64,000 bases of DNA from Candidatus Woesearchaeota archaeon (GCA_964343875.1 CAYFJW010000002.1:6797-70796); one strand, 5' to 3'; positions 8,958-36,093 are shown, counted from the first letter of the stretch. Numbers and translations are program-made. The notes: a model not told the origin generated them from the sequence alone.

Positions 8958-9461
8958 TTAAACTGCTTCAGGAATGTCCAAACAATTACAAACGGCAATT
9001 CCGCCGCCACTACCCGTATACAGCGAAGCCCATTTTAAACAAACTCTCTCATAAACAGGCCTACTTCCCCCAGAGATATCGACAATATCTATAAGCTTAC
9101 CTCTCCCCCACTTAACACACTTCTTATCTGTCACTTCTGTGTCACATGTTGGGGACGGCCCCTGCCAATCAGGAAGACATTGATAATTCTCTTTTGTAGT
9201 GCAGTGTGAAACACAATCTGCAAAGGAAGCAGTAATCTCTCTATCTAAGGCACGTTCACAGTAATTTTTAGCTTTTGATTCACTTTTATACTCGCCTTTT
9301 GAAACAGAGATCTCCTCTTGTTTATTTAAAACACTACACGGCGCGGTTTCTGGGGAAACCCCTTCAAAAGAAGCATTTACTTCAGAAATTTGATCTGTTG
9401 CCATCATAAAGGCAAAAACAATCAACACCCCCATTCCAATCACTAAAACATTCTTCTTCAT
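8958..9461 (-). CDS. secreted cysteine-rich protein
   Basis: Signal peptide MKKNVLVIGMGVLIVFAFMMA; 12 Cys in mature part. Confidence 0.5.
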   Translation of the reverse strand: MKKNVLVIGMGVLIVFAFMMATDQISEVNASFEGVSPETAPCSVLNKQEEISVSKGEYKSESKAKNYCERALDREITASFADCVSHCTTKENYQCLPDWQGPSPTCDTEVTDKKCVKWGRGKLIDIVDISGGSRPVYERVCLKWASLYTGSGGGIAVCNCLDIPEAV

Positions 9462-9482
9462 TATAACTCCCTCCATCTAAAT

Positions 9483-10154
9483 TTATTTATCATTATAACC
9501 CTGCTCCATTATTTGATCATCCAGCATTTTTTGTAAGTCATTTTCAGTCAAAAGTGGTTCTTCATGCCCAAAGATTCTGCCCCTAAGCAAACTTTGTTCT
9601 TTCAAAAGCCTTTCAAGACCCTCCGGACCAAGTGTCCCTGGATTCTTTTTTGCTTGATCAATATTATAATCCAATATCCATAGTTGGCGCCTATCTTTCC
9701 CTCCATACCATTCCTTGAGGCCGGTATCAATATCCAAGTCACTTTCACCAAAAGCTGAACTTGGAAGACCATAAACACCCACTCCTTTCCAAAGCTGTTT
9801 GTTATCCGTGAGATATCCCGTAAGCCGATCTAATTGAGATGTTAATTCCGGAGCAGTCCTATAAAGTTGAGAAACAATGTCCAACCCAACATTAAGATTA
9901 GCAATGCCTTTAGAAGCAAGTCTATTTTCTACAGAACTTGGATGCGAAAGGCGTTCTGCTTCTGCACGTTGAACTGCCTCGTAAAATGGTTGGCCCTCTA
10001 AATTATTATGAGCCTGCTCTTGCGTATGCACCGGGTTCGCTCTTTGAGGTAATGCGTCAGAAGGACGATTTAAGTTCAGCCCCCCTAATAGTCCGAGAGT
10101 TGCGCCAGCAACAAGGCCTACTGCAACTTTTCCAATACCATAATTTTTTGTCAT
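9483..10154 (-). CDS. secreted or membrane-anchored hypothetical protein
   Basis: N-terminal hydrophobic segment GKVAVGLVAGATLGLLGG; no family recognised. Confidence 0.45.
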   Translation of the reverse strand: MTKNYGIGKVAVGLVAGATLGLLGGLNLNRPSDALPQRANPVHTQEQAHNNLEGQPFYEAVQRAEAERLSHPSSVENRLASKGIANLNVGLDIVSQLYRTAPELTSQLDRLTGYLTDNKQLWKGVGVYGLPSSAFGESDLDIDTGLKEWYGGKDRRQLWILDYNIDQAKKNPGTLGPEGLERLLKEQSLLRGRIFGHEEPLLTENDLQKMLDDQIMEQGYNDK

Positions 10155-10168
10155 TTTTATCCTTCAGG

Positions 10169-10675
10169 TTACACTAATACAGGTTTAACTTTAACATCAT
10201 TACAATCACATTCAAGACTCATAGAGCCAGTAGCCTTACAATCCCATGAAATTATTGTTGTTGATCCTCCGCCACCATTTCCTCCAATTTGAATTTGCCC
10301 ACCCTTTGTAATCGTAATTGGGTAACAAGAATCAATGGAACACTGATTATTATCACTCATTTTAATTTTCGGCCCACATAGGGCTCCAGCATCTTTACAT
10401 GTTTTTGAACAACTTGAAACATATTCTCTCATACAACGATTTATATCCATCCTACATTCCATTTTTGACCAAGATTCTGCAGCACTCCTAAACTTATCAT
10501 TATCAAATCCTTCGCCTTCACAAGTCTTTTTAGGTAACCCAAAATCCTTACAAGTTTTTGGTGCAGGAGGATCAACCGTAACTTGCGCCTCAACATTCTG
10601 AATTATTGAAAATGGGCTGAAGAGTAGAATAAATAATCCAATTCCTATCATCAAGCTCATTAATATTTTTTTCAT
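10169..10675 (-). CDS. secreted cysteine-rich protein with poly-Gly stretch
   Basis: Signal peptide MKKILMSLMIGIGLFILLFSPFSI; many Cys; GGNGGGGS stretch. Confidence 0.55.
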   Translation of the reverse strand: MKKILMSLMIGIGLFILLFSPFSIIQNVEAQVTVDPPAPKTCKDFGLPKKTCEGEGFDNDKFRSAAESWSKMECRMDINRCMREYVSSCSKTCKDAGALCGPKIKMSDNNQCSIDSCYPITITKGGQIQIGGNGGGGSTTIISWDCKATGSMSLECDCNDVKVKPVLV

Positions 10676-10787: not shown

Positions 10788-11477
10788 ATGCTTCAAAAAT
10801 TAACAAAAGAATTAACATCTCTAAAAAACGAAGAAAAGATTCCAATCTACCAAAACTTCTTCAAAACAGGAAAAGGACAGTATGGAGAGGGAGATATCTT
10901 CTACGGCCTAACCGTCCCACAACAAAGAAAATTAGCAAAAAAATACAAAGACATCCCACTAAATGACGTTAAAAAACTCCTTAACCATAAGGTTCACGAG
11001 TTCAGACTAACAGGCACATTAATCCTAGTCCATAAATATGAAACGTCAGATAATAAAGAAGAAATCTTTAACTTCTATCTAAACAATACTGACGGAATTA
11101 ATAACTGGGACCTAGTCGACATTTCAGCAGATAAAATACTGGGGGCCCATTTAATCAACAAAGATAAATCATTATTATACAACTTCACCAAATCCGATAA
11201 CCTCTGGGAAAGAAGAATGGCAATAATTGCCACGTTTTATTTCATTAAAAACAATAAATTTCAAGACACTTTAAAGATATCTAAACTCCTCTTGAACGAC
11301 AAACATGACCTAATCCACAAAGCAGTTGGGTGGATGTTAAGAGAGGTAGGGAAAAGAGACCAAAAAACAGAAGAAAAGTTCTTAAACAAACACTACAGAG
11401 AAATGCCTAGAACAATGCTAAGATACTCAATAGAAAGATTAGAAGAATCAAAAAGAAAACACTACATGAAGAAGTAA
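10788..11477 (+). CDS. DNA alkylation repair enzyme (AlkD/AlkC-like HEAT-repeat glycosylase family)
   Basis: FFKTGKGQYGEGDIFYGLTVP and WDLVD motifs typical of the PF08713 family; start placed at MLQKL. Confidence 0.6.
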   Translation: MLQKLTKELTSLKNEEKIPIYQNFFKTGKGQYGEGDIFYGLTVPQQRKLAKKYKDIPLNDVKKLLNHKVHEFRLTGTLILVHKYETSDNKEEIFNFYLNNTDGINNWDLVDISADKILGAHLINKDKSLLYNFTKSDNLWERRMAIIATFYFIKNNKFQDTLKISKLLLNDKHDLIHKAVGWMLREVGKRDQKTEEKFLNKHYREMPRTMLRYSIERLEESKRKHYMKK

Positions 11478-11564
11478 CCTATAGTTCCTAATAATCCATC
11501 TCAAAACTATACAAATTAACACACGATCATTTATATACTAGAATGAATTATCAATTCTCCGCTT

Positions 11565-11580
11565 ACACAATATCTTGTGT
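11565..11580. promoter_or_regulatory. NrdR box (ACACAATATCTTGTGT) upstream of nrdR-nrdJ
   Basis: 16-bp palindrome matching the bacterial NrdR-box consensus acaCwAtATaTwGtgt; ~50 bp upstream of nrdR start. Confidence 0.55.
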
Positions 11581-11629
11581 TTTAGCAAAAATCTACCACT
11601 ATAGGTAGTACCAACTGAAAAGTGATAAA

Positions 11630-12076
11630 ATGCTATGTCCATACTGTCAAAAAGAAGAAACAAAGGTTATAGACAGCAGAGAGACAGAAAATCTAGAAGC
11701 AACCCGTAGAAGAAGGGAATGTTTAAAGTGCAAAAAACGTTTCACAACCTATGAAAGAGTTGAAACAGATCTTAAGATAATAAAAAAAGATAATTCTGCA
11801 GAACCATATGATAGAAACAAACTAGTTAGGAGTATCTCCATACCATGTGAAAAAAGACCAATTGACGCAGATACAATTAACAAAATCGCAAACAAAATTG
11901 AAGCAGTTCTCAGAAACAAACCCAAATCAGAAGTTACCTCCAAAGCTGTCGGAGAACTAGCAATGAGGGCATTAAAAAAATTAGACAAAGTAGCCTATAT
12001 CAGATTCGCATCAGTTTATAGAGACTTCGAAGATATTGAATCATTCGAAGCAGAATTGATCAAACTAAAAAATTAA
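11630..12076 (+). CDS. nrdR: transcriptional repressor NrdR (zinc ribbon + ATP cone)
   Basis: MLCPYCQ...VIDSR...RRRRECLKCKKRFTTYE...KLDKVAYIRFASVYRDFEDI, near-diagnostic NrdR signature. Confidence 0.9.
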   Translation: MLCPYCQKEETKVIDSRETENLEATRRRRECLKCKKRFTTYERVETDLKIIKKDNSAEPYDRNKLVRSISIPCEKRPIDADTINKIANKIEAVLRNKPKSEVTSKAVGELAMRALKKLDKVAYIRFASVYRDFEDIESFEAELIKLKN

Positions 12077-12091
12077 GGAAGGTGTTAGTAT

Positions 12092-14236
12092 ATGGAAGCG
12101 AAAGTGACCAAGATAAGAAAAAGGGACGGAAGAATTGTAGACTTCGACCTAAATAAAATTACAGAGGCAATATTCAAGGCTGCACAGGCAGTTGGGGGAG
12201 AAGACAAAGAGCTAGCAGAGTCCATAGCTAAAAGAGTCACTTCCAAAATAGAAGAAAAGTTCGATAATAAAACACCGACAGTTGAAGAAATCCAAGATCA
12301 AGTTGAAAAAACCTTAATGGATGAAGGACATAATAAAACTGCAAAGACCTATATTTTATACAGATATAAAAGATCACAAGAAAGAGCAAAGAGAGCACTA
12401 ATTCTTGGTGAAGGTCATGAAGAAGATAACTTAAAGTTCTCAAATAATTCCTTACAAGTATTGGAAAGAAGATACCTCCTAAAAGACAAAGAGGGAACGC
12501 TAATTGAAACTCCAAAACAAATGGTTAGGAGAATTGCACACAACATCTCACAGGCAGAATACAATTATGGTGCAAACGAACAAGAAGCACACGAAATAGA
12601 AGAGTCGTTTTATAATCTGATAGCAAACCTAGACTTCCTACCAAATACACCCACCATTATGAATGCAGGAACAAGACTGCAACAACTAAGCGCTTGTTTT
12701 GTACTTCCAGTAGAAGATTCAATGGAAGGCATATTCAAGTCCGTAATGGACACAGCCTTAATTCACAAATCAGGAGGCGGAACAGGCTTCTCATTCGCAA
12801 GACTTAGACCAGCAAATGACTTAGTTAGATCTACTTCAGGCGTAGCTTCGGGCCCAGTTTCATTCATGAAGGTGTTTGATGCGGCTACAGAAGTAATCAA
12901 ACAAGGCGGAAAGAGGCGTGGAGCAAACATGGGCATACTGCGTGTAGATCACCCAGATATTATGGAATTTGTTGAATGCAAGGCAGACATGAAAACACTA
13001 CAAAATTTCAACATCTCAGTTGCAGCAACTGACAAATTTATGCAAGCTGTAAAGGACGATACAGACTATGAAATAATGAACCCCAAGGATAAAAAAGTAG
13101 TTGGAAAACTAAAAGCAAGGGACGTTTTCACAGTTATTATTAACAACGCTTGGAAAAACGGAGACCCCGGTTTTATTTTCATAGATAAAATTAACAGAGA
13201 ACATCCTGGGAAAAACGTAGGTGAAATAGAGAGCACAAATCCCTGTGGGGAACAACCACTACTCCCATATGAGTCATGTAACCTAGGTTCCATAAACTTA
13301 AACAACTTCATCAATGATGATAAAACAGACGTTGACTGGGATAAATTAAGAGAATGCATCAGACTATCAACAAGATTCCTTGATGATGTAATTGACATGA
13401 ACAAATATCCAATACCCGAACTAAAAGAGATGGCAAACAAAACAAGGAAGATAGGTTTAGGGATAATGGGCTTTGCAGATTTATTGTATGAGCTAGGTAT
13501 TAAATACAACTCAGAAGAAGGTTATGCAATTGCTGAAAAGATTATGAAATTCTTCCAAGAAGAGTCATACAAGATGTCAGGCGAACTTGCAGAAACAAGA
13601 GGAACATACCCCGCATGGGAGGGATCAGACCACCATAAAGTAGGCAGAAAGATGAGAAACACCTGTTGCATCACAATAGCTCCGACAGGGACCATAAGCA
13701 TGATTGCAGAGGCTTCTGGAGGGTGTGAACCAACATTCGCAATTTCATACATAAAGAATGTTATGGATGGAACTGAATTAATTTACACAAACAGAATCTT
13801 TGAGAGGGTTGCAAAAGAACGTGGATTTGATTCACCTGATTTAATGAGGAAAATTGCAAAGATTGGAACAATTCAAGATATTGGAGAAGTTCCAAAAGAT
13901 GTGAGAGATGTTTTTGTGACGGCACAAGATTTAACTCCGGAAGAACATGTTAAAATGCAAGCAGCATTCCAAAAATATGTTGATTCATCAATCTCTAAAA
14001 CAATTAATTTCCCAAACTCAGCAACAATAGAAGATGTAAAAAACTCCTACTTGACTGCATGGGAGCTAGGTTGCAAAGGAATAACAATCTACAGAGACGG
14101 AAGTAGAGACAATCAAGTATTAAACATTGGTGAAGTTAACAAAGAAAAATCTCCAGAACCAGAAGCCAAAGCTGAAGATGGATCCGCTTGTAAGATCACC
14201 ATTGAAGATGGAAGAATAGTTAAAACCTGTGAATAA
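12092..14236 (+). CDS. nrdJ: class II (adenosylcobalamin-dependent) ribonucleotide reductase with N-terminal ATP cone
   Basis: ATP-cone (KIRKRDGRIVDFDLNKI), LDFLPNTPTIMNAG, NPCGEQPL catalytic motif, 714 aa. Confidence 0.85.
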   Translation: MEAKVTKIRKRDGRIVDFDLNKITEAIFKAAQAVGGEDKELAESIAKRVTSKIEEKFDNKTPTVEEIQDQVEKTLMDEGHNKTAKTYILYRYKRSQERAKRALILGEGHEEDNLKFSNNSLQVLERRYLLKDKEGTLIETPKQMVRRIAHNISQAEYNYGANEQEAHEIEESFYNLIANLDFLPNTPTIMNAGTRLQQLSACFVLPVEDSMEGIFKSVMDTALIHKSGGGTGFSFARLRPANDLVRSTSGVASGPVSFMKVFDAATEVIKQGGKRRGANMGILRVDHPDIMEFVECKADMKTLQNFNISVAATDKFMQAVKDDTDYEIMNPKDKKVVGKLKARDVFTVIINNAWKNGDPGFIFIDKINREHPGKNVGEIESTNPCGEQPLLPYESCNLGSINLNNFINDDKTDVDWDKLRECIRLSTRFLDDVIDMNKYPIPELKEMANKTRKIGLGIMGFADLLYELGIKYNSEEGYAIAEKIMKFFQEESYKMSGELAETRGTYPAWEGSDHHKVGRKMRNTCCITIAPTGTISMIAEASGGCEPTFAISYIKNVMDGTELIYTNRIFERVAKERGFDSPDLMRKIAKIGTIQDIGEVPKDVRDVFVTAQDLTPEEHVKMQAAFQKYVDSSISKTINFPNSATIEDVKNSYLTAWELGCKGITIYRDGSRDNQVLNIGEVNKEKSPEPEAKAEDGSACKITIEDGRIVKTCE

Positions 14237-14245
14237 TTAAACCCA

Positions 14246-14683
14246 ATGGATACTTATTCTTTCCAAGGGCAATATGCCCTAAAAGATAAAAAAACCAACA
14301 GAATTGTTGTTCAAACAAACTTTGAAGGAGTACTTTTAAGAGATTCCAAGGGAAATATCCTTGGAGATCTTGATTTTGGGGACAATGGCCATAGATATAA
14401 CTTGCGCGGGACACTTGCACCCCGCACCACATTCCTATTACTAAGCTCCATCGCAGTAAAAGAAGACGCAGAAGTCACGAGGGAGCCGCCCCTGGAGCTT
14501 CAGTTTTTAAAGCACGGGTGTTTGACAGACATGGTGGGCAGCTATGGCGGAGGGATTAAAATAGCCTCAGAAGAAGCCATAGCAAGATTAAGTGCTGGCA
14601 AAGAACCCCTCCAAAAGGGCTTAAGAATATGGGCGACCAATAGAAATCAAAGGAATGCATCTCTTCAGCTATTCTATTCGTAA
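14246..14683 (+). CDS. hypothetical protein inserted between the two nrdJ paralogs
   Basis: 145-aa ORF; 3' half markedly GC-richer than surroundings; no family recognised. Confidence 0.35.
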   Translation: MDTYSFQGQYALKDKKTNRIVVQTNFEGVLLRDSKGNILGDLDFGDNGHRYNLRGTLAPRTTFLLLSSIAVKEDAEVTREPPLELQFLKHGCLTDMVGSYGGGIKIASEEAIARLSAGKEPLQKGLRIWATNRNQRNASLQLFYS

Positions 14684-14717
14684 CTAATTATTTAAACCCA
14701 AAACCATTCTCAAACAC

Positions 14718-16757
14718 ATGGACACGATACCTAATTTCAATAGAATAAAAAAAAGAGATGGAACTATTGTAGATTATGATTTTAAAAAGCTACCCAAGGC
14801 AATTCTAAAAGCAGCAAGAGCTGTTGGAAAAAGAAAGAAAGAATTAGCAAATGAATTAGCCGAAAAAGTAATCCAAGAGTTAAATAAAACTTTCAATAAA
14901 AAGGACATTCCTGGAGTTGAAGACTTCCAAGATGCAATCGAAAAGATATTAATTGAAGAAGGACATGCAAAGATTGCAAAAGCGTTTATCCTTTATAGGA
15001 ATTCAAAAACAAAACTAAGAGAAGAAAAGGCATCCCTCGTCGGAAGCAAAGAAAAAAACAAACTCTCAATTAATGCAATAAGACTACTAAAGGCAAGATA
15101 CTTACTAAAGGATTCAGATGGAAGCATAATAGAAACACCTAATGAAATGTTCAGACGTGTTGCAAAAAACATTGCATCTGCAGATAAAAACTATAAGGGT
15201 GGAAACCAAAAGAAATCAGAGGAAGAATTTTATAAAATTATGTTCAACTTAGACTTCCTACCAAACACACCCGCTTTGATGAATGCAGGAACAAAAATAC
15301 AACAATTAGTATCATGCTACGTACTCCCTGTAGATGATAGTCTAGATGGCATATTTAAAACACTAAATTTAGCAATGAATATACAAAAAACAGGAGCTGG
15401 AACAGGGTTCTCCTTCTCAAATCTAAGACAAAGAAGAGCAAAGATAAGTAAAAATGGTTGTTCTTCAAGTGGACCAGTACCGTTTATCAAAGTTTTTAAC
15501 GAAGCAACAGGAGCACTAAAGAAAGGCGGTACTAGGCGTGGCGCCAACATGGGAATACTAAGAGTTGACCATCCAGACATTCTAAAGTTCATCAGTCTAA
15601 AGGCATCAGAAGTTAACATGACTAATTTTAACATTTCAATTGGCGTAACAAATGAATTCATGGAAGCTGTGCAAAAACATGAAGACTGGGAATTAAAAGA
15701 TCCAAGAACAAAAGAAAAAGTTTCAACTTTAGATGCAAGATTCATATGGGATTCATTAATCGCATCAGCATGGACAAATGGAGAACCAGGAATTATCTTC
15801 CTAGACAGAATAAACAAAGATAACAAGTCAAGACAGGAAAACATAACAGCAACAAGTCCTTGTGCAGAAGTTCCAATGTTAAGCAATGAATCATGTATGA
15901 TTGGAAGTATTAACGTAGGCAACTTCGTAATTGAATCAGAAGATAAAAAAGTAGACTGGAAATTATTAAGAGAAACAATTCACACGGCAGTCCACTTCTT
16001 AGATAATGCAATAGAACTAAACAACTACCCATCAAAAGATATCAAAGAGAAGTCTCTAGCATATAGAAAGATAGGCTTAGGAGTAATGGGATTTGCAAAC
16101 ATGCTAGCAAAACTAAGGATTCCTTACGACTCAGAAAAAGGAGTTGAGATGGGTAAAAAACTAGCTAAATTCCTTAGAAAAGAAGCAGATAACGCCTCAC
16201 ACGAACTAGCAAAGAAACGGGGTTCGTACCCCCAATGGAAATTAGCAAAGAACGCATCTAAAAGAAAGATGAGAAATGCAACTAGGCTAAGCGTCGCTCC
16301 AACAGGCTCAATTAGCATGATCGCAGACTGTTCTGCCGGTATTGAACCATTATTCGCAATAAGTTATGTAAAAAGAGTAATGGGCGGCAAACAATTCTTT
16401 TACATTGATGGCAATCTTAAAGATGCTTTAAAGGAGAATAAAATCTATAAAGAAGAAATCATAGATAGGATTGTAAATAGAAATTCAATTAGAAGGATAA
16501 AGGATATTCCTCTTAAAATAAGAAAAGTATTCACAGTTGCACATGATATTGCACCGGAATGGCACATAAATATGCAAGCAGCATTCCAAGAATCAATTGA
16601 TAACGCAATATCAAAGACAGTTAACTTTCCAAATCACACAACAATGAAAGACATCGAAAAGGTTTACCTCCACGCATGGAAGAGTAATTGCAAGGGAATA
16701 ACAATATACAGGGATGGAAGCAGAAGTAATCAAGTTGTACAATCAAATTCTATGTAA
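14718..16757 (+). CDS. nrdJ: class II ribonucleotide reductase paralog with ATP cone
   Basis: ATP cone (KKRDGTIVDYDFKKL), LDFLPNTPALMNAG, SPCAEVPM variant of the catalytic motif; ~50% identity to upstream copy. Confidence 0.85.
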   Translation: MDTIPNFNRIKKRDGTIVDYDFKKLPKAILKAARAVGKRKKELANELAEKVIQELNKTFNKKDIPGVEDFQDAIEKILIEEGHAKIAKAFILYRNSKTKLREEKASLVGSKEKNKLSINAIRLLKARYLLKDSDGSIIETPNEMFRRVAKNIASADKNYKGGNQKKSEEEFYKIMFNLDFLPNTPALMNAGTKIQQLVSCYVLPVDDSLDGIFKTLNLAMNIQKTGAGTGFSFSNLRQRRAKISKNGCSSSGPVPFIKVFNEATGALKKGGTRRGANMGILRVDHPDILKFISLKASEVNMTNFNISIGVTNEFMEAVQKHEDWELKDPRTKEKVSTLDARFIWDSLIASAWTNGEPGIIFLDRINKDNKSRQENITATSPCAEVPMLSNESCMIGSINVGNFVIESEDKKVDWKLLRETIHTAVHFLDNAIELNNYPSKDIKEKSLAYRKIGLGVMGFANMLAKLRIPYDSEKGVEMGKKLAKFLRKEADNASHELAKKRGSYPQWKLAKNASKRKMRNATRLSVAPTGSISMIADCSAGIEPLFAISYVKRVMGGKQFFYIDGNLKDALKENKIYKEEIIDRIVNRNSIRRIKDIPLKIRKVFTVAHDIAPEWHINMQAAFQESIDNAISKTVNFPNHTTMKDIEKVYLHAWKSNCKGITIYRDGSRSNQVVQSNSM

Positions 16758-16758
16758 A

Positions 16759-17361
16759 ATGGATGAAGAAAGGAAGGGGTTAGTCCAGATATATACTGGC
16801 GACGGAAAAGGGAAAACTACGGCTTCATTAGGCCTAGCTCTAAGATCACTAGGACATAACATGTCTGTCTACATGGTTCAATTCATGAAGGGTGGCGACA
16901 CAGGAGAAATGTTTGCAATCCAAAAATACTTACCTAATTTTCACTTAGTTCAATTCGGCAAGGACGCCTTACAAGAAAAACAAATGAAAATTGTTTCATT
17001 TGACGCAGAAGAAAAAAAACAAAACTTTCTAACAGACGAAGAAAGATATGTATTTTTCTCAGACAAAGTTGAAACAGATCCCTCTAAAATGGGCTTTGAA
17101 CATGCAGAAAGAATAGTTAACTCTGGCAAATACGACGTAGTAATCCTAGATGAACTTAACTGTGTTTTGGGAAGAGACATGATTCCTATTGAAGACGCAC
17201 TTAAATTAATAAAAAACAAACCAAAACACGTGGAACTAATTATTACTGGCAGAGACGCCCCAGATAAAGTAAAGGATGCAGCAGACTTAGTAAGCGAAGT
17301 CAAGGGCCTAAAACATCCTTACGATAAGGGAATTCTTGCAAGAAAGGGCATTGAATACTAA
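16759..17361 (+). CDS. cobO: cob(I)alamin adenosyltransferase (CobA/CobO/BtuR family)
   Basis: QIYTGDGKGKTTASLGLALR P-loop signature; start placed at MDEERK just after the nrdJ stop. Confidence 0.8.
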   Translation: MDEERKGLVQIYTGDGKGKTTASLGLALRSLGHNMSVYMVQFMKGGDTGEMFAIQKYLPNFHLVQFGKDALQEKQMKIVSFDAEEKKQNFLTDEERYVFFSDKVETDPSKMGFEHAERIVNSGKYDVVILDELNCVLGRDMIPIEDALKLIKNKPKHVELIITGRDAPDKVKDAADLVSEVKGLKHPYDKGILARKGIEY

Positions 17362-18191
17362 TTCTTAGCAGCCTTCAATGCAGCAATAGAAACTTCTAAC
17401 TGTTTATCATCCGGTTCCTGCGTAGTTATTTTCTGCAACCATAACCCTGGCTTAGTTAGAAAATTAGATATTTTATTTGGATATTTTGCATTAAACCTTA
17501 ATATTTCATAACTAATTGCAGCAATCACAGGTATCAATAATATCCTATACAAAAACTTTAGTATCCAACTCTCACTCCAAACCAAAGAAAATAAGATTAT
17601 ACTAATTATCAAAACAATAAAGATAAATGAAGTCCCACATCTAGGGTGTATCCTTGAGAACTTTTTTACATTCTTAACAGTTAAACTCTTTCCAGCTTCA
17701 TAACAATTAACTGCCTTGTGTTCAGCCCCATGATATTCAAATACCCTCTTAACATCCTTAAATCTAGATATAAAATATAAATAACCTACAAATAATGCAA
17801 CCCTCCAAAGTCCATCAACAATATTAAACCAAATTCTTTCCTCTGCAACAAAATTACTCAACCACAAAGGCAATGCAATAAACAAACCAATTGCAATTGC
17901 AAAACTAAATAACAACATAAAGAATATTCCCCAGCCCCCAATCTTCTCCTCTTCTTCCAAAGACTCATTACTGCTCCAAGTTAATGCTTTGGTTCCAATA
18001 TACAACATCTCAAATAAAGAGATTAATCCTCTCAAAAAAATAGTCTTCCTAAATTTCTCAGATATACCACTTCTCTTCTCAACCTTAGTCTTTATCCTAC
18101 CATTCTCCTTTCTAACAGACATAGCTACCTTCTTCCTGCTAGCCATCATTACACCTTCCATAATGGCCTGTCCCCCAATATAATCAGTCAT
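17358..18191 (-). CDS. DUF1385 family membrane-associated protein
   Basis: IGGQAIMEGVMM and YHGAEHKAVNCYE motifs; start trimmed to MTDYIGG. Confidence 0.55.
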   Translation of the reverse strand: MTDYIGGQAIMEGVMMASRKKVAMSVRKENGRIKTKVEKRSGISEKFRKTIFLRGLISLFEMLYIGTKALTWSSNESLEEEEKIGGWGIFFMLLFSFAIAIGLFIALPLWLSNFVAEERIWFNIVDGLWRVALFVGYLYFISRFKDVKRVFEYHGAEHKAVNCYEAGKSLTVKNVKKFSRIHPRCGTSFIFIVLIISIILFSLVWSESWILKFLYRILLIPVIAAISYEILRFNAKYPNKISNFLTKPGLWLQKITTQEPDDKQLEVSIAALKAAKN

Positions 18192-18403
18192 ACCACTACC
18201 TCCAAAACAAGATTTAAAAAGCTTTAGAGTACTAAAATCCCATGAAATGTGACATTTGCAAGGGGAAAGTAGAATATACCTTCCTAAAGAAGCCCCTAGG
18301 TACTTACGTGGGCTCAGGAAAGCAAAGAAAGTTCGCTTGTACAAATTGTCAAAAAACGAATTCTCAAGAAGAGATTACGACGAAGTTAACGAAGTAATCT
18401 TTT

Positions 18404-30949: not shown

Positions 30950-32121
30950 TAGTCGATTCCTCCAAAGACTTCTTGATCGGGGTAAACTGTGATCCCGTCA
31001 TCTGTAATCTGCATAGCAACAATTTTCTTATCGTGTTTAGCACCTCTCAGCTTTAAAACTTCTATGGCGTTCTCTCTTATATTTCCGCGTTTAATATTAT
31101 ATAAAACAATAACACCATCTGCAAGAAACTCTTCAACACCACTAGTACTAAAAATCTTAGGTATTTGCTCAGTTTCAGTAATCATAAAGGCTGTAGTAGA
31201 TATCTTTTCAAAGAATCTAAAAAGTTGCTCAATATAAATTCTATAACTATCTTCCTTTCCAGTAAAAGCAGAAGCAATTGCAGTTAATGAATCAACAATT
31301 ACAATATCTGGCTGAAAGTCAGAAGGGAATATAATTGGTTCAATATCAATCAAAAGCTCACCCTTAGACTTCATCAATAAAGCATCAACGCTCCTAGTAA
31401 TGTCAAAGGGATTAAATCTTTTAATTGCTAAGTTATTTTTTTTAATCAACTCATGCGGATTCCATCCAAAATCCTCCATATGTTGAATTAATCTTTCTTC
31501 AGACTCCTCAAAACTCATATACAAGCATTTCTTGCCTTTTTTTGCATGATGATTCAACATTTGCAAGCTTAGAATTGTTTTACCACTTCCCGCACCGCCT
31601 GCAAGAAGTATTGTAGATCCCTTTGGAACACCATCAAAGAATAAAGCATCAAAACCAGGAACACCGGTCTCAATAAAACCCTCCTTTGTTTTTTTACCAC
31701 TAATCTCTCCGACAGTTCTAGAGATTTCTTTACTCTCTGTAATCACCTTCGCTTCATGTTTTTTGATATTACCTGCTTTGATATGGCTTTCAATATCTTT
31801 TTTTATTTTAGAAAGATCAATTTTCTTTAAGTCAGAAATTTTACCTTCGCCTTTCTTTATATCTTCCTTTTCAATTTTCCTAACTTCTACATGGGGTCTG
31901 GATTTTTCCTTTCTATCTTTCGTCCAGTAATGAACCTTTGCCATATTGATCTTCCTAACATTAACATCACCCTTTCCAACCAATGCATGCAGCCTCGCAA
32001 GAACAGTGTGCCTAGCAAGCTTAGTACGCTTCATAACCTCTGCTATGGTCAAACCTTCAGAATGACTTTTTAGGAGATTCTCAATTTTATACCGGTGTTT
32101 GTCCTTTTCTCGCTTTGTCAT
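30949..32121 (-). CDS. wHTH-KaiC-like (RecA superfamily) ATPase
   Basis: N-terminal winged-helix (LTIAEVMKRTKLARHTVLARLHALVGKGDV), K/E-rich linker, KaiC/RadA-like domain with Walker A GGAGSGKT and Walker B VIVDSL. Confidence 0.7.
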   Translation of the reverse strand: MTKREKDKHRYKIENLLKSHSEGLTIAEVMKRTKLARHTVLARLHALVGKGDVNVRKINMAKVHYWTKDRKEKSRPHVEVRKIEKEDIKKGEGKISDLKKIDLSKIKKDIESHIKAGNIKKHEAKVITESKEISRTVGEISGKKTKEGFIETGVPGFDALFFDGVPKGSTILLAGGAGSGKTILSLQMLNHHAKKGKKCLYMSFEESEERLIQHMEDFGWNPHELIKKNNLAIKRFNPFDITRSVDALLMKSKGELLIDIEPIIFPSDFQPDIVIVDSLTAIASAFTGKEDSYRIYIEQLFRFFEKISTTAFMITETEQIPKIFSTSGVEEFLADGVIVLYNIKRGNIRENAIEVLKLRGAKHDKKIVAMQITDDGITVYPDQEVFGGID

Positions 32122-32191
32122 AAATATCTAGCATAAACAATTATAACAGTTATTTATAAACATTGTGTTACCCCAACATATAGTATATATA

Positions 32192-32254
32192 ACTATCACA
32201 TTAAACTATCACATTAAACTATCACATTAAACTATCACATTAAACTATCACATA
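32192..32254. repeat. 13-bp tandem repeat (ACTATCACATTAA) x4.8
   Basis: Read directly: four perfect copies and a partial fifth, 70-130 bp upstream of the wHTH-KaiC gene start. Confidence 0.9.
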
Positions 32255-34950: not shown

Positions 34951-36093
34951 ATGGCACTTGATCATGATATAGACAGAGTATTATTCTTAGGAATACCTCT
35001 GGGAAGAAAGTGTGGCGTCTCAAAAGCCAATCTAGAGCTAGCAAAAGCCCTTTCAGGCGAAGGTGTAGCTGTTGATCATATTTCCACATGGCCCCACACA
35101 GATCACTTTGAATTCACTCCATCCGCAGGCGAAGAAAGAAATTTCAAAAGCATAGACGACTTCTTGGCTTTCATGGACGAGGCGGGAAAAGAACCTGACT
35201 TAATACACTGCCATAGTTGGGCATGGGCACCACAATCCCAAGTCGATGGCGAAGGAATAAAGAAGATAAAAAACCATTTTGATGTTGGTGTTGTTCATAC
35301 CTTTCACAGCTATCTTCCAATCGAACAAGCAGCACAAGAAGAATTACTACCTTACGCAGAGAGGGTGGTCCATCTTACCGAACAAGGAGAAGCTGCATTT
35401 TGTGAAATATTTAGACATATGCCACAAAAGTTCCCTAACCTAAGAGTTGTACCCAATATAGTTCAAACTCCAAAATGCTCCAATGCAGATGTTCAAGAAG
35501 TGAGGAAAAGAATAAGTCCAAATGGGGAAGACGTTATTCTTTACGTGGGAAGATTCTCTCATGAAAAAGGAACAACTGAGTTAACAGATGCCTTTGATAC
35601 AATCTCAAAAAAATATGGCGGAGATGTTAGACTAGTTCTAATCGGAGAAGAAACTAAACCTCACGGTGAAGAAGAACGTATGATTGGGAACCTTGCAGGG
35701 TGCATGGGCCAAGTAACATTCACAGGTTGGTTAGACGAAAGAGATGTTGCATTACATCAAAGAGCTACTGGAATGGGTGGTCTTGAAATAGCTCCAAGTT
35801 ACTACGAAGCTTTTTCTTTAGCAATATTCAAAGCACTAGCAACAGGATGTCCAGTTGCAGCATCAAGAATCCCAACTCTCAGAAATTTATTACATCTAGA
35901 TACTGATAAGCCATATGCAATACCAATCAGAGAAGTAAGTCCCGGCGATATAGTTACAGCTTTTGATTTCTTTAGAGCAAATAGAAGCGAATGTCTAGAA
36001 CTTACAAGATTAGCTCAACAAAAAGTAACCAAAGATTATTCCCCTCAAAACGTAGCTAGGCAATGCTTAGGCGTTTACAGGGAAGTCCGATAA
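34951..36093 (+). CDS. glycosyltransferase, GT4-like (GT-B fold)
   Basis: C-terminal EAFSLAIFKALATGCPVAAS E-x7-E-type motif; GC-richer than surroundings. Confidence 0.65.
   Translation: MALDHDIDRVLFLGIPLGRKCGVSKANLELAKALSGEGVAVDHISTWPHTDHFEFTPSAGEERNFKSIDDFLAFMDEAGKEPDLIHCHSWAWAPQSQVDGEGIKKIKNHFDVGVVHTFHSYLPIEQAAQEELLPYAERVVHLTEQGEAAFCEIFRHMPQKFPNLRVVPNIVQTPKCSNADVQEVRKRISPNGEDVILYVGRFSHEKGTTELTDAFDTISKKYGGDVRLVLIGEETKPHGEEERMIGNLAGCMGQVTFTGWLDERDVALHQRATGMGGLEIAPSYYEAFSLAIFKALATGCPVAASRIPTLRNLLHLDTDKPYAIPIREVSPGDIVTAFDFFRANRSECLELTRLAQQKVTKDYSPQNVARQCLGVYREVR

Follow-up and report, generated by a model that had tools for sequence, protein, structure and literature searches.

The window analysed here is a stretch of 64,000 nucleotides from Candidatus Woesearchaeota archaeon (GCA_964343875.1 CAYFJW010000002.1:6797-70796), with positions counted from its first letter. 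Five genes on one strand, ending at 17,361, encode a repressor of the NrdR family (nrdR), two class II ribonucleotide reductases (RNRs; nrdJ1 and nrdJ2), an orphan protein between them (orf145) and an ATP:corrinoid adenosyltransferase (cobA), and nrdR is preceded by a pair of NrdR boxes. We consider it likely that this is a ribonucleotide-reduction locus of a DPANN archaeon under a conventional NrdR repressor, in which nrdJ2 and cobA form a separate unit and NrdJ2 has the history proposed below. The features of the locus are as follows.

11530..11537, plus strand: archaeal TATA box TTTATATA of the nrdR promoter, read from the sequence (TTTATATA or TTTAAATA in the related loci L081 and L084)
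11565..11580, no strand: NrdR box 1, ACACAATATCTTGTGT (core positions, shuffles, position weight matrix (PWM), conservation)
11581..11595, no strand: linker between the boxes, 15 bp (canonical length 15-16 bp; PMC13584703)
11596..11611, no strand: NrdR box 2, CCACTATAGGTAGTAC (core positions, PWM, simulations, conservation)
11622..11626, plus strand: Shine-Dalgarno (SD)-like GTGAT, 3 nt 5' of the nrdR ATG, likewise read from the sequence
11630..12076, plus strand: nrdR, zinc-ribbon and ATP-cone repressor of 148 aa (TIGR00244, PF22811, PF03477)
12092..14236, plus strand: nrdJ1, canonical dimeric-type class II (adenosylcobalamin, AdoCbl) reductase (ATP-cone, NPCGE, C-terminal C-x12-C tail)
14246..14683, plus strand: orf145, orphan gene of 145 aa, 9 nt past nrdJ1 (three clusters; GxxGGGI motif)
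14688..14695, plus strand: internal TATA-like element TTATTTAA, ending 22 nt 5' of the nrdJ2 ATG (geometry as in ABCE1 and the genes at 34951 and 54791)
14718..16757, plus strand: nrdJ2, atypical class II reductase paralogue (ATP-cone, SPCAE, altered loop 2, no C-terminal Cys tail)
16759..17361, plus strand: cobA/cobO/btuR-type ATP:corrinoid adenosyltransferase, 200 aa from M16 (PF02572; P-loop GDGKGKTT)

NrdR and its tandem operator

The first gene of the cluster, which a preliminary description of this DNA had called an almost textbook NrdR, matches the NrdR equivalog profile TIGR00244 over residues 1-146 of its 148 (188.2 bits; cut-off 124.65). The two domains of the family are also recognized separately, the zinc ribbon PF22811 (Zn_ribbon_NrdR) at residues 1-42 (70.5 bits; cut-off 27.2) and the ATP-cone PF03477 at residues 49-135 (76 bits; cut-off 25.8). 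The alignment thus extends over both domains, a point on which that description had let the assignment stand or fall. The four cysteines of the ribbon (C3, C6, C31 and C34, in two CxxC pairs) are invariant or nearly so in 30 relatives, and the protein is 87%, 84% and 70% identical to its counterparts in L081, L084 and L086, respectively. Synonymous sites are saturated between the window and L081 or L084 (proportion of synonymous differences, pS, 0.55-0.9), which makes ratios of nonsynonymous to synonymous divergence (dN/dS) unusable, and only dN values are compared here. That of NrdR against L081 is 0.073.

A functional NrdR site consists of two 16-bp boxes 15-16 bp apart, with critical positions C4, A6, A8, T9, T11 and G13, and lone boxes do not bind (PMC13584703). 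Box 1 is, as first described, a perfect 6-4-6 inverted repeat about 50 bp upstream of nrdR (its last base lies 49 bp 5' of the ATG at 11630). It differs from the consensus ACACWATATATWGTGT at a single position, agrees with ACACTATATATAGTGT at 13 of 16 and has all six critical positions. No other site in the window comes within one mismatch of ACACWATATATWGTGT, and none of 100 dinucleotide-preserving shuffles of the window produced one. This box had been taken for the whole operator; relaxed matching at tandem spacing, a check proposed in the same description, revealed box 2 exactly 15 bp further on, and the operator is instead a tandem pair. Box 2 keeps five of the six critical positions. A PWM trained only on other archaeal loci and then run over the 64,000 positions of the window placed box 1 at the top (20.5 bits) and box 2 in third place (12.7 bits). 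No other tandem pair of comparable quality occurs in the 64 kb, nor did one arise in any of 300 Markov simulations, and the pair is beyond chance. Weighing against box 2 are a G at position T9 and flanks that also depart from the consensus; its central AG occurs in box 2 of E. coli nrdAB as well (PMC13584703). Core-position and PWM scans of the window gave no NrdR site before orf145, nrdJ2 or cobA. One lone PWM match elsewhere, CCCCAACATATAGTAT at 32171 (14.8 bits), has no partner box and was taken as chance.

For comparison, archaeal loci were selected by title, or by GC content and TATA features, among the matches listed, which are mostly bacterial. L081, L084 and L086 retain both boxes (with linkers of 15, 15 and 16 bp), an upstream TATA box and the AGTGAT motif, and the sequence AGTGAT(A/T)AA before nrdR is invariant in these three loci and the window. 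Box 1 is conserved in all three, and the C4/A6/T11/G13 core of box 2 is kept in L081 and L084. Because synonymous sites are saturated between the window and L081 or L084, a non-coding promoter conserved over the same distance points to constraint. Tandem boxes also precede nrdR, among the matches listed, in L002, L008, L010, L012, L018, L169, L170, L171 and L175, and in at least about a dozen low-GC metagenome loci; the linkers of the archaeal relatives are 15 or 16 bp long. In the distant DPANN loci that have the boxes, the flanking DNA is unalignable and NrdR is only 50-70% identical. Boxes are thus present in the orthologous promoters of close and distant relatives alike, where their absence was to have counted against the first description. 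With the NrdR family match and the tandem operator, this suggests that the core of that description, an autoregulated nrdR-nrdJ operon, holds.

The host is a DPANN (Woesearchaeota-type) archaeon. An archaeal marker gene, ABCE1/RLI with its Fer4_RLI domain, lies in the window 4 kb 5' of the nrdR locus, and ribosomal protein L35Ae is encoded in syntenic relatives. The named top matches of NrdR and NrdJ come from Candidatus Woesearchaeota, Nanoarchaeota and Aenigmarchaeota, archaeal TTTAWATA boxes stand about 22 nt 5' of the ATG of genes in the window (a leaderless architecture), and an identical copy of NrdJ2 was found on one 163-kb metagenome contig. While the archaeal setting of this NrdR was correctly recognized at the outset, the surprise at meeting a predominantly bacterial regulator there was overstated: a published count finds NrdR in 77% of the genomes of bacteria and 22% of those of archaea (PMC13584703), haloarchaeal nrdR-nrdAB operons were tabulated in 2010 (Lundin et al., PMC3019208), and the proteins of DPANN relatives are already named NrdR at NCBI. 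The regulon as such is an ordinary case of the known NrdR system. In a rough neighbour-joining (NJ) tree, computed without support values from loci pre-selected by similarity, the DPANN NrdR proteins group with those of Patescibacteria/candidate phyla radiation (CPR) bacteria.

In a protein from outside the window, P0175 (NCBI; 754 aa, from a 6.9-kb contig), an NrdR-type zinc ribbon (MKCPSCGS...) is joined straight onto the ATP-cone of a canonical NrdJ with NPCGE and a Zn-finger tail. Repressor and enzyme may be naturally fused here, an nrdR-nrdJ operon may have lost the DNA between its two ATP-cone coding regions, or the contig may be misassembled.

Two unlike reductases, CobA and orf145

The nrdJ1 gene starts at 12092, only 15 bp past the end of nrdR at 12076 as previously noted, and is preceded by the SD motif GGAAGGTG. 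Both reductases score above the cut-off of TIGR02504 (NrdJ_Z; 399.95 bits), NrdJ1 with 762 and NrdJ2 with 676 bits, and each consists of its own ATP-cone, an all-alpha lgN domain (PF00317) and an lgC barrel (PF02867). Their identity of 48%, the motifs NPCGEQPL and SPCAEVPM and the two cones agree with the divergent paralogues first described. The two are not equivalent, and the first interpretation needs correcting on this point. NrdJ1 is canonical, with NPCGE in the finger loop and redox cysteines in SACFV and ESCNLGS. In NrdJ2, SPCAE aligns to N320-P-C322-G-E324 of Thermotoga maritima NrdJ, so that Ser stands in place of the Asn of the N-x-C-x-E pattern, which is invariant in 101 of 101 canonical NrdJ sequences. 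NrdJ2 and its whole clade also end right after the core, without the cysteines of the C-terminal tail. Positions that are 93-100% invariant in the 101 canonical sequences and altered in the clade are, for the finger loop, N383S, G386A and N397 (hydrophobic in the clade), then G229A and, for loop 2, P240Q, T248N, G250C and S257P.

NrdJ2 belongs to a distinct group. Among its best 120 matches the active-site motif is NPCGE in 98, SPCAE in 10, SPCGE in two, NPCAE in one (P0131) and SACAE in one, and members of the group with deviating motifs also have no C-terminal tail with Cys. With a profile built from this group, the same 12 clusters scored 1149-1367 bits and were set apart from all canonical NrdJ (at most 1029 bits). 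The 12 clusters, all DPANN, are those among 8,000 word-sharing candidates scored out of 5.8 billion proteins. The dN of NrdJ2 against L081 is 0.080 and that of NrdJ1 0.067; strong purifying selection acts on NrdJ2, which is constrained and not decaying. In all seven loci examined, its gene directly follows a canonical nrdJ and directly precedes cobA. The canonical nrdJ beside nrdR has no ATP-cone in L169, L170 and L171, while NrdJ2 keeps its cone there. Two details of these loci may be recorded separately: the canonical nrdJ of L171 additionally carries a LAGLIDADG intein, and a gene call of L170 that comprises the ATP-cone only is an nrdR with a mis-called start, the zinc-ribbon coding sequence lying just upstream.

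In an NJ tree computed from a precomputed distance matrix, the NrdJ2 clade is monophyletic and sister to P0133-P0135, canonical NrdJ proteins from simple nrdR-nrdJ-cobA operons, and NrdJ1 of the window groups elsewhere. The most economical history suggested by these relationships is that NrdJ2 descends from the original nrdJ of the operon, the neighbour of cobA in the simpler nrdR-nrdJ-cobA arrangement, and that NrdJ1 was a later insertion behind nrdR. NrdJ2 would then have lost its redox tail and exchanged Asn for Ser.

As to function, we lean somewhat towards NrdJ2 being still an AdoCbl radical enzyme with altered properties, and not a dead subunit. The clade has kept the thiyl Cys, both redox Cys and the Glu without exception, and the phosphate-binding motif APTGSIS is retained. 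In addition, tail-less and otherwise canonical NrdJ proteins exist (e.g. P0143), so the tail is not an absolute criterion, and P0131, a member of the clade, retains the Asn. These observations count against a less probable, though still substantial, alternative, in which NrdJ2 would be non-catalytic or limited to a single turnover and would act in an alpha/alpha' heterodimer with NrdJ1 (contributing ATP-cone and specificity-site control) or in cofactor loading or exchange with CobA. That alternative would fit the Ser at a position otherwise invariant, the accompanying G386A, N397 and four loop-2 changes, the missing tail, the constant place behind a canonical nrdJ, the cone-less partners in L169, L170 and L171, and the fact that the partner is the more variable of the two (43% identity between window and L170 for NrdJ1 against 56% for NrdJ2). 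Substitution of this Asn in the E. coli class Ia enzyme abolishes catalysis, which weighs against an active NrdJ2. A heterodimer of NrdJ1 and NrdJ2 is hypothetical, and we know of no class II heterodimer of paralogues; this counts against the alternative.

More tentatively, the NrdJ2 clade could be an undescribed RNR-like subclass that serves as a dedicated partner of canonical NrdJ, whether as an alpha' cone subunit or in cofactor loading or repair with CobA, with orf145 as a possible accessory. If NrdJ2 is such a partner, this may be the first case of paralogue partnering among class II enzymes; the clade is in any event a natural experiment on a supposedly essential active-site Asn of RNRs. 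A literature search of limited reach found nothing on NrdJ in DPANN or on Asn-to-Ser NrdJ, and nothing relevant on mutants of Asn437.

The adenosyltransferase of CobA/CobO type reported downstream is borne out by a full-length match to PF02572 (187 bits; cut-off 25.7). The protein falls just below the NCBIfam cut-offs (157.7 against 167.75 bits for TIGR00708, 168 against 185 bits for NF004637) and exceeds the profile length by about 25 aa; translation probably begins at M16 (16759), one base past the nrdJ2 stop. In all related loci cobA lies directly 3' of the adjoining nrdJ. A literature search, again limited in reach, gave nothing relevant on nrdJ-adenosyltransferase coupling. The tight link of nrdJ and cobA illustrates how genome-reduced, B12-scavenging DPANN cells may secure AdoCbl for DNA precursors.

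The remaining gene, orf145, does not figure in the first description; it is a real, lineage-specific gene. Its product had no match in Pfam, NCBIfam, PHROGs or a PDB profile search, nor in a comparison with NrdJ profiles, and an exhaustive HMMER search of 1.84 billion representatives returned only three clusters. All copies with enough flanking DNA lie between nrdJ1 and nrdJ2 (the neighbours on the short L168 contig are unannotated), and L084 has none. Length is conserved and the GxxGGGI motif invariant, at a dN against L081 of 0.54, about seven times that of the neighbouring genes. The AlphaFold2 (AF2) model has a predicted local distance difference test (pLDDT) score of 45 and is unusable. 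The sequences before orf145 (ATAATTAAACCCAATGGATAC) and before nrdJ2 (TAATTATTTAAACCCAAAACC...ATGGACAC) are alike (14237-14262 and 14684-14725 of the window), and both open reading frames (ORFs) begin with MDT; this likeness may be a duplication left by insertion of orf145. An insertion flanked by duplicated TAATTAAACCCA..ATGGAYAC was considered and set aside, as the arrangement occurs in the window only and was not seen in L081.

Beyond cobA, a DUF1385 gene on the minus strand (17358-18344) converges on it with a 4-nt overlap; whichever type of RNR is present, nearly every related DPANN locus has this gene as the constant neighbour downstream of its RNR cluster. In L086 (7001-9990) the same slot, with ABCE1 upstream and DUF1385 downstream, holds NrdR and tandem boxes followed by a monomeric class II reductase of the ribonucleoside triphosphate reductase (RTPR) type (RNR_Alpha, RNR-II_ins_dom) and a dUTPase/dCTP-deaminase gene; cobA is missing. 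Between related lineages, the RNR cassette that follows nrdR has been exchanged.

Predicted promoter layout and transcription units

In the window, 27 nt separate the TATA box TTTATATA from box 1. Taking the best TATA match in each of 21 archaeal-type loci among the matches listed, this gap is 25-28 nt in 10 and 14-17 nt in seven. The two classes (about 26 or about 16 nt) are roughly one helical turn apart and appear to reflect phasing of the NrdR operators relative to the TATA box. Bacterial loci of the same scans differ, with TTGACA-type -35 elements abutting box 1. In leaderless genes of the window (ABCE1 and the genes at 34951 and 54791) the ATG follows the TATA box by 22-23 nt, a calibration that places the predicted nrdR transcription start at about 11558-11560, some 21-23 nt past the TATA box at 11530-11537, and the boxes at about +6 to +52.

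Several points weigh against this layout. First, the start sites are predicted from the position of the TATA box. Second, the linker contains a less pronounced AT-rich stretch, TTTTAGCAAAAAT, that might itself serve as the TATA box, in which case the NrdR boxes would lie on either side of a TATA box and not behind it. Third, the closest loci (L081, L084 and L086) are not independent observations. Fourth, several of the 21 loci in the spacing tally were picked by eye as archaeal-type, on low GC and TATA-like motifs. A literature search of limited reach found nothing on NrdR operators relative to TATA boxes in archaea, and an Rfam search of 11400-17500, which included the 5' untranslated region and the nrdJ1-nrdJ2 spacer, found no riboswitch or other RNA at E ≤ 1.

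The five genes are separated by gaps of 15, 9, 34 and 1 nt. Such short gaps on one strand, together with a gene order that is conserved in relatives and the lack of any terminator-like feature noted between the genes (no terminator search was made), would suit a single NrdR-repressed operon nrdR-nrdJ1-orf145-nrdJ2-cobA with its sole promoter at about 11530-11560. We regard this as rather unlikely. SD-like motifs precede nrdR (GTGAT) and nrdJ1 (GGAAGGTG), but upstream of nrdJ2 the window has no SD and, as first stated, no NrdR box (best PWM score -3.8 bits). Instead it has the TATA-like element TTATTTAA, a predicted internal promoter that the first description had missed, about 22 nt 5' of the ATG, in the geometry of the leaderless genes of the window. 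An equivalent TATA box stands before nrdJ2 in L081, L084, L169 and L171, and L170 has both a TATA box and an SD, so that the element recurs in six diverged loci; the nrdJ1-nrdJ2 spacer of L084 (48 nt) is built around TATTTAAATA. Because of this conserved TATA box and the absence of an SD and of a box, nrdJ2-cobA probably forms a leaderless unit apart from the other genes. Transcription may nevertheless continue from nrdJ1 into nrdJ2-cobA, and this counts against a strict division. Of the NrdR regulon first envisaged, the part comprising nrdR and nrdJ1 stands: only these two genes, and orf145, appear clearly placed under the NrdR boxes, while nrdJ2-cobA is likely to have a promoter of its own.

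The mechanism that we infer, from start sites and unit boundaries through nucleotide-dependent DNA binding and repression to the activity of NrdJ2, would run as follows. NrdR, through its zinc ribbon and ATP-cone, would sense the balance of ATP and dATP, a part drawn from work on the Streptomyces coelicolor and E. coli proteins (PMC9110341, PMC12176259). Loaded with dATP and ATP, it would bind the tandem boxes at 11565-11580 and 11596-11611 as an oligomer, a step modelled on the published mechanism and box requirements (PMC9110341, PMC13584703). As the boxes begin about 5-8 nt past the predicted start, bound NrdR would cover about +6 to +52 and could keep the archaeal RNA polymerase from recruitment or promoter clearance. 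The genes so repressed would be nrdR itself, the AdoCbl reductase gene nrdJ1 and probably orf145. The second unit, nrdJ2-cobA, would be driven by a TATA box of its own, yield a leaderless mRNA and be within reach of NrdR solely by read-through, and CobA would adenosylate salvaged corrinoid and thus supply AdoCbl.

That the palindromes are mere baggage of a horizontally acquired bacterial operon, non-functional in archaeal transcription, with NrdR inert or used otherwise, is very improbable: the grouping with Patescibacteria/CPR in the rough tree is compatible with inter-domain transfer and to our knowledge no archaeal NrdR has been characterized or studied experimentally, which also weighs against a working repressor here, yet boxes, linker length and position after the TATA box are kept across DPANN lineages with 50-70% NrdR identity and unalignable flanks, NrdR has a dN of 0.07 where dS is saturated, and the boxes accompany archaeal TATA boxes and not -35/-10 elements as in the bacterial loci of the same scan.

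What may be new in the locus would be limited to the NrdJ2 clade, the constant association of NrdJ2 with a canonical NrdJ and cobA, and the TATA phasing. A layout of TATA box, about 26 or 16 nt, box 1, a linker of 15 or 16 nt and box 2 offers a clean, conserved basis for work on an archaeal NrdR. It predicts that the repressor blocks recruitment of RNA polymerase rather than binding of the TATA-binding protein (TBP). If the phasing is true, it would amount to a rule for wiring a bacterial-type repressor into archaeal promoters.

Elsewhere in the window, the 13-bp unit AACTATCACATTA is repeated perfectly in tandem, 4.8 times, in an intergenic stretch (32191-32253). This array is situated a short way 5' of a minus-strand gene (start at 32121) for a 390-aa protein that combines a winged-helix-like N-terminal segment with a KaiC/RecA-type ATPase domain, and is adjoined by the lone NrdR-like 16-mer at 32171. 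The array could represent iterated binding sites of the 390-aa regulator or an origin-like element. At 8958-10675 (minus strand), three consecutive ORFs for small secreted or Cys-rich proteins (172, 223 and 168 aa) lie upstream of an alkD-like gene, and the same slot in L081 and in a Joint Genome Institute (JGI) contig holds unannotated genes of similar size (about 168, 207-223 and 159-171 aa).

Comparison with known systems

The closest described counterpart is the nrdRJ operon of S. coelicolor (PMC9110341, PMC13584703). Both have nrdR as the first gene, before a class II nrdJ, a repressor with zinc ribbon and ATP-cone, and two 16-bp partial palindromes 15 bp apart; co-transcription of the two genes, autoregulation and a place of the palindromes at the transcription start, predicted for the window, would be shared as well. 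They differ in that the boxes here follow a TATA box for TBP and transcription factor B (TFB), whereas those of S. coelicolor overlap sigma-70 -35/-10 elements, and in that the archaeal locus continues downstream with an atypical second nrdJ, the orphan orf145 and cobA. The haloarchaeal nrdR-nrdA/B operons (PMC3019208) likewise place an archaeal nrdR directly upstream of its presumed RNR targets. Those are class I nrdAB genes acquired from bacteria, some of them on plasmids, whereas the DPANN genes are class II, and the NrdR described here groups, in a weak tree, with that of CPR bacteria.

The best solved relative of both reductases is T. maritima NrdJ (PDB 1xje and related entries; E = 1e-106 for NrdJ2). 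NrdJ1 retains its N-P-C-G-E motif, Cys pair and loop-2 pattern; unlike it, both proteins of the window have an N-terminal ATP-cone, and NrdJ2 has S-P-C-A-E and an altered loop 2. The nrdR-nrdJ-cobA operons of L174 and L175 (P0133, P0135) have the same NrdR, a cobA that immediately follows nrdJ, and tandem boxes ahead of nrdR. Where the window has the NrdJ1-NrdJ2 pair, they encode a single canonical NrdJ with NPCGE and a Zn-finger Cys tail, and it is the P0133-P0135 proteins that form the sister group of the NrdJ2 clade.

Two further parallels are functional. In the yeast Rnr2/Rnr4 small-subunit heterodimer, a degenerate paralogue is kept under selection beside a catalytic one. This is an analogy of function only: Rnr2/Rnr4 is the radical-generating beta subunit of another RNR class, and a heterodimer of NrdJ1 and NrdJ2 is hypothetical. 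For the promoter, several unrelated archaeal repressors, such as Phr of Pyrococcus and MDR1 of Archaeoglobus, bind just past the TATA box and block recruitment of RNA polymerase. As with these, the operator described here would lie between the TATA box and about +50 and overlap the predicted start. Phr and MDR1 belong to winged helix-turn-helix (wHTH) and DtxR families, respectively, whereas NrdR is a zinc-ribbon/ATP-cone oligomer that bends DNA.

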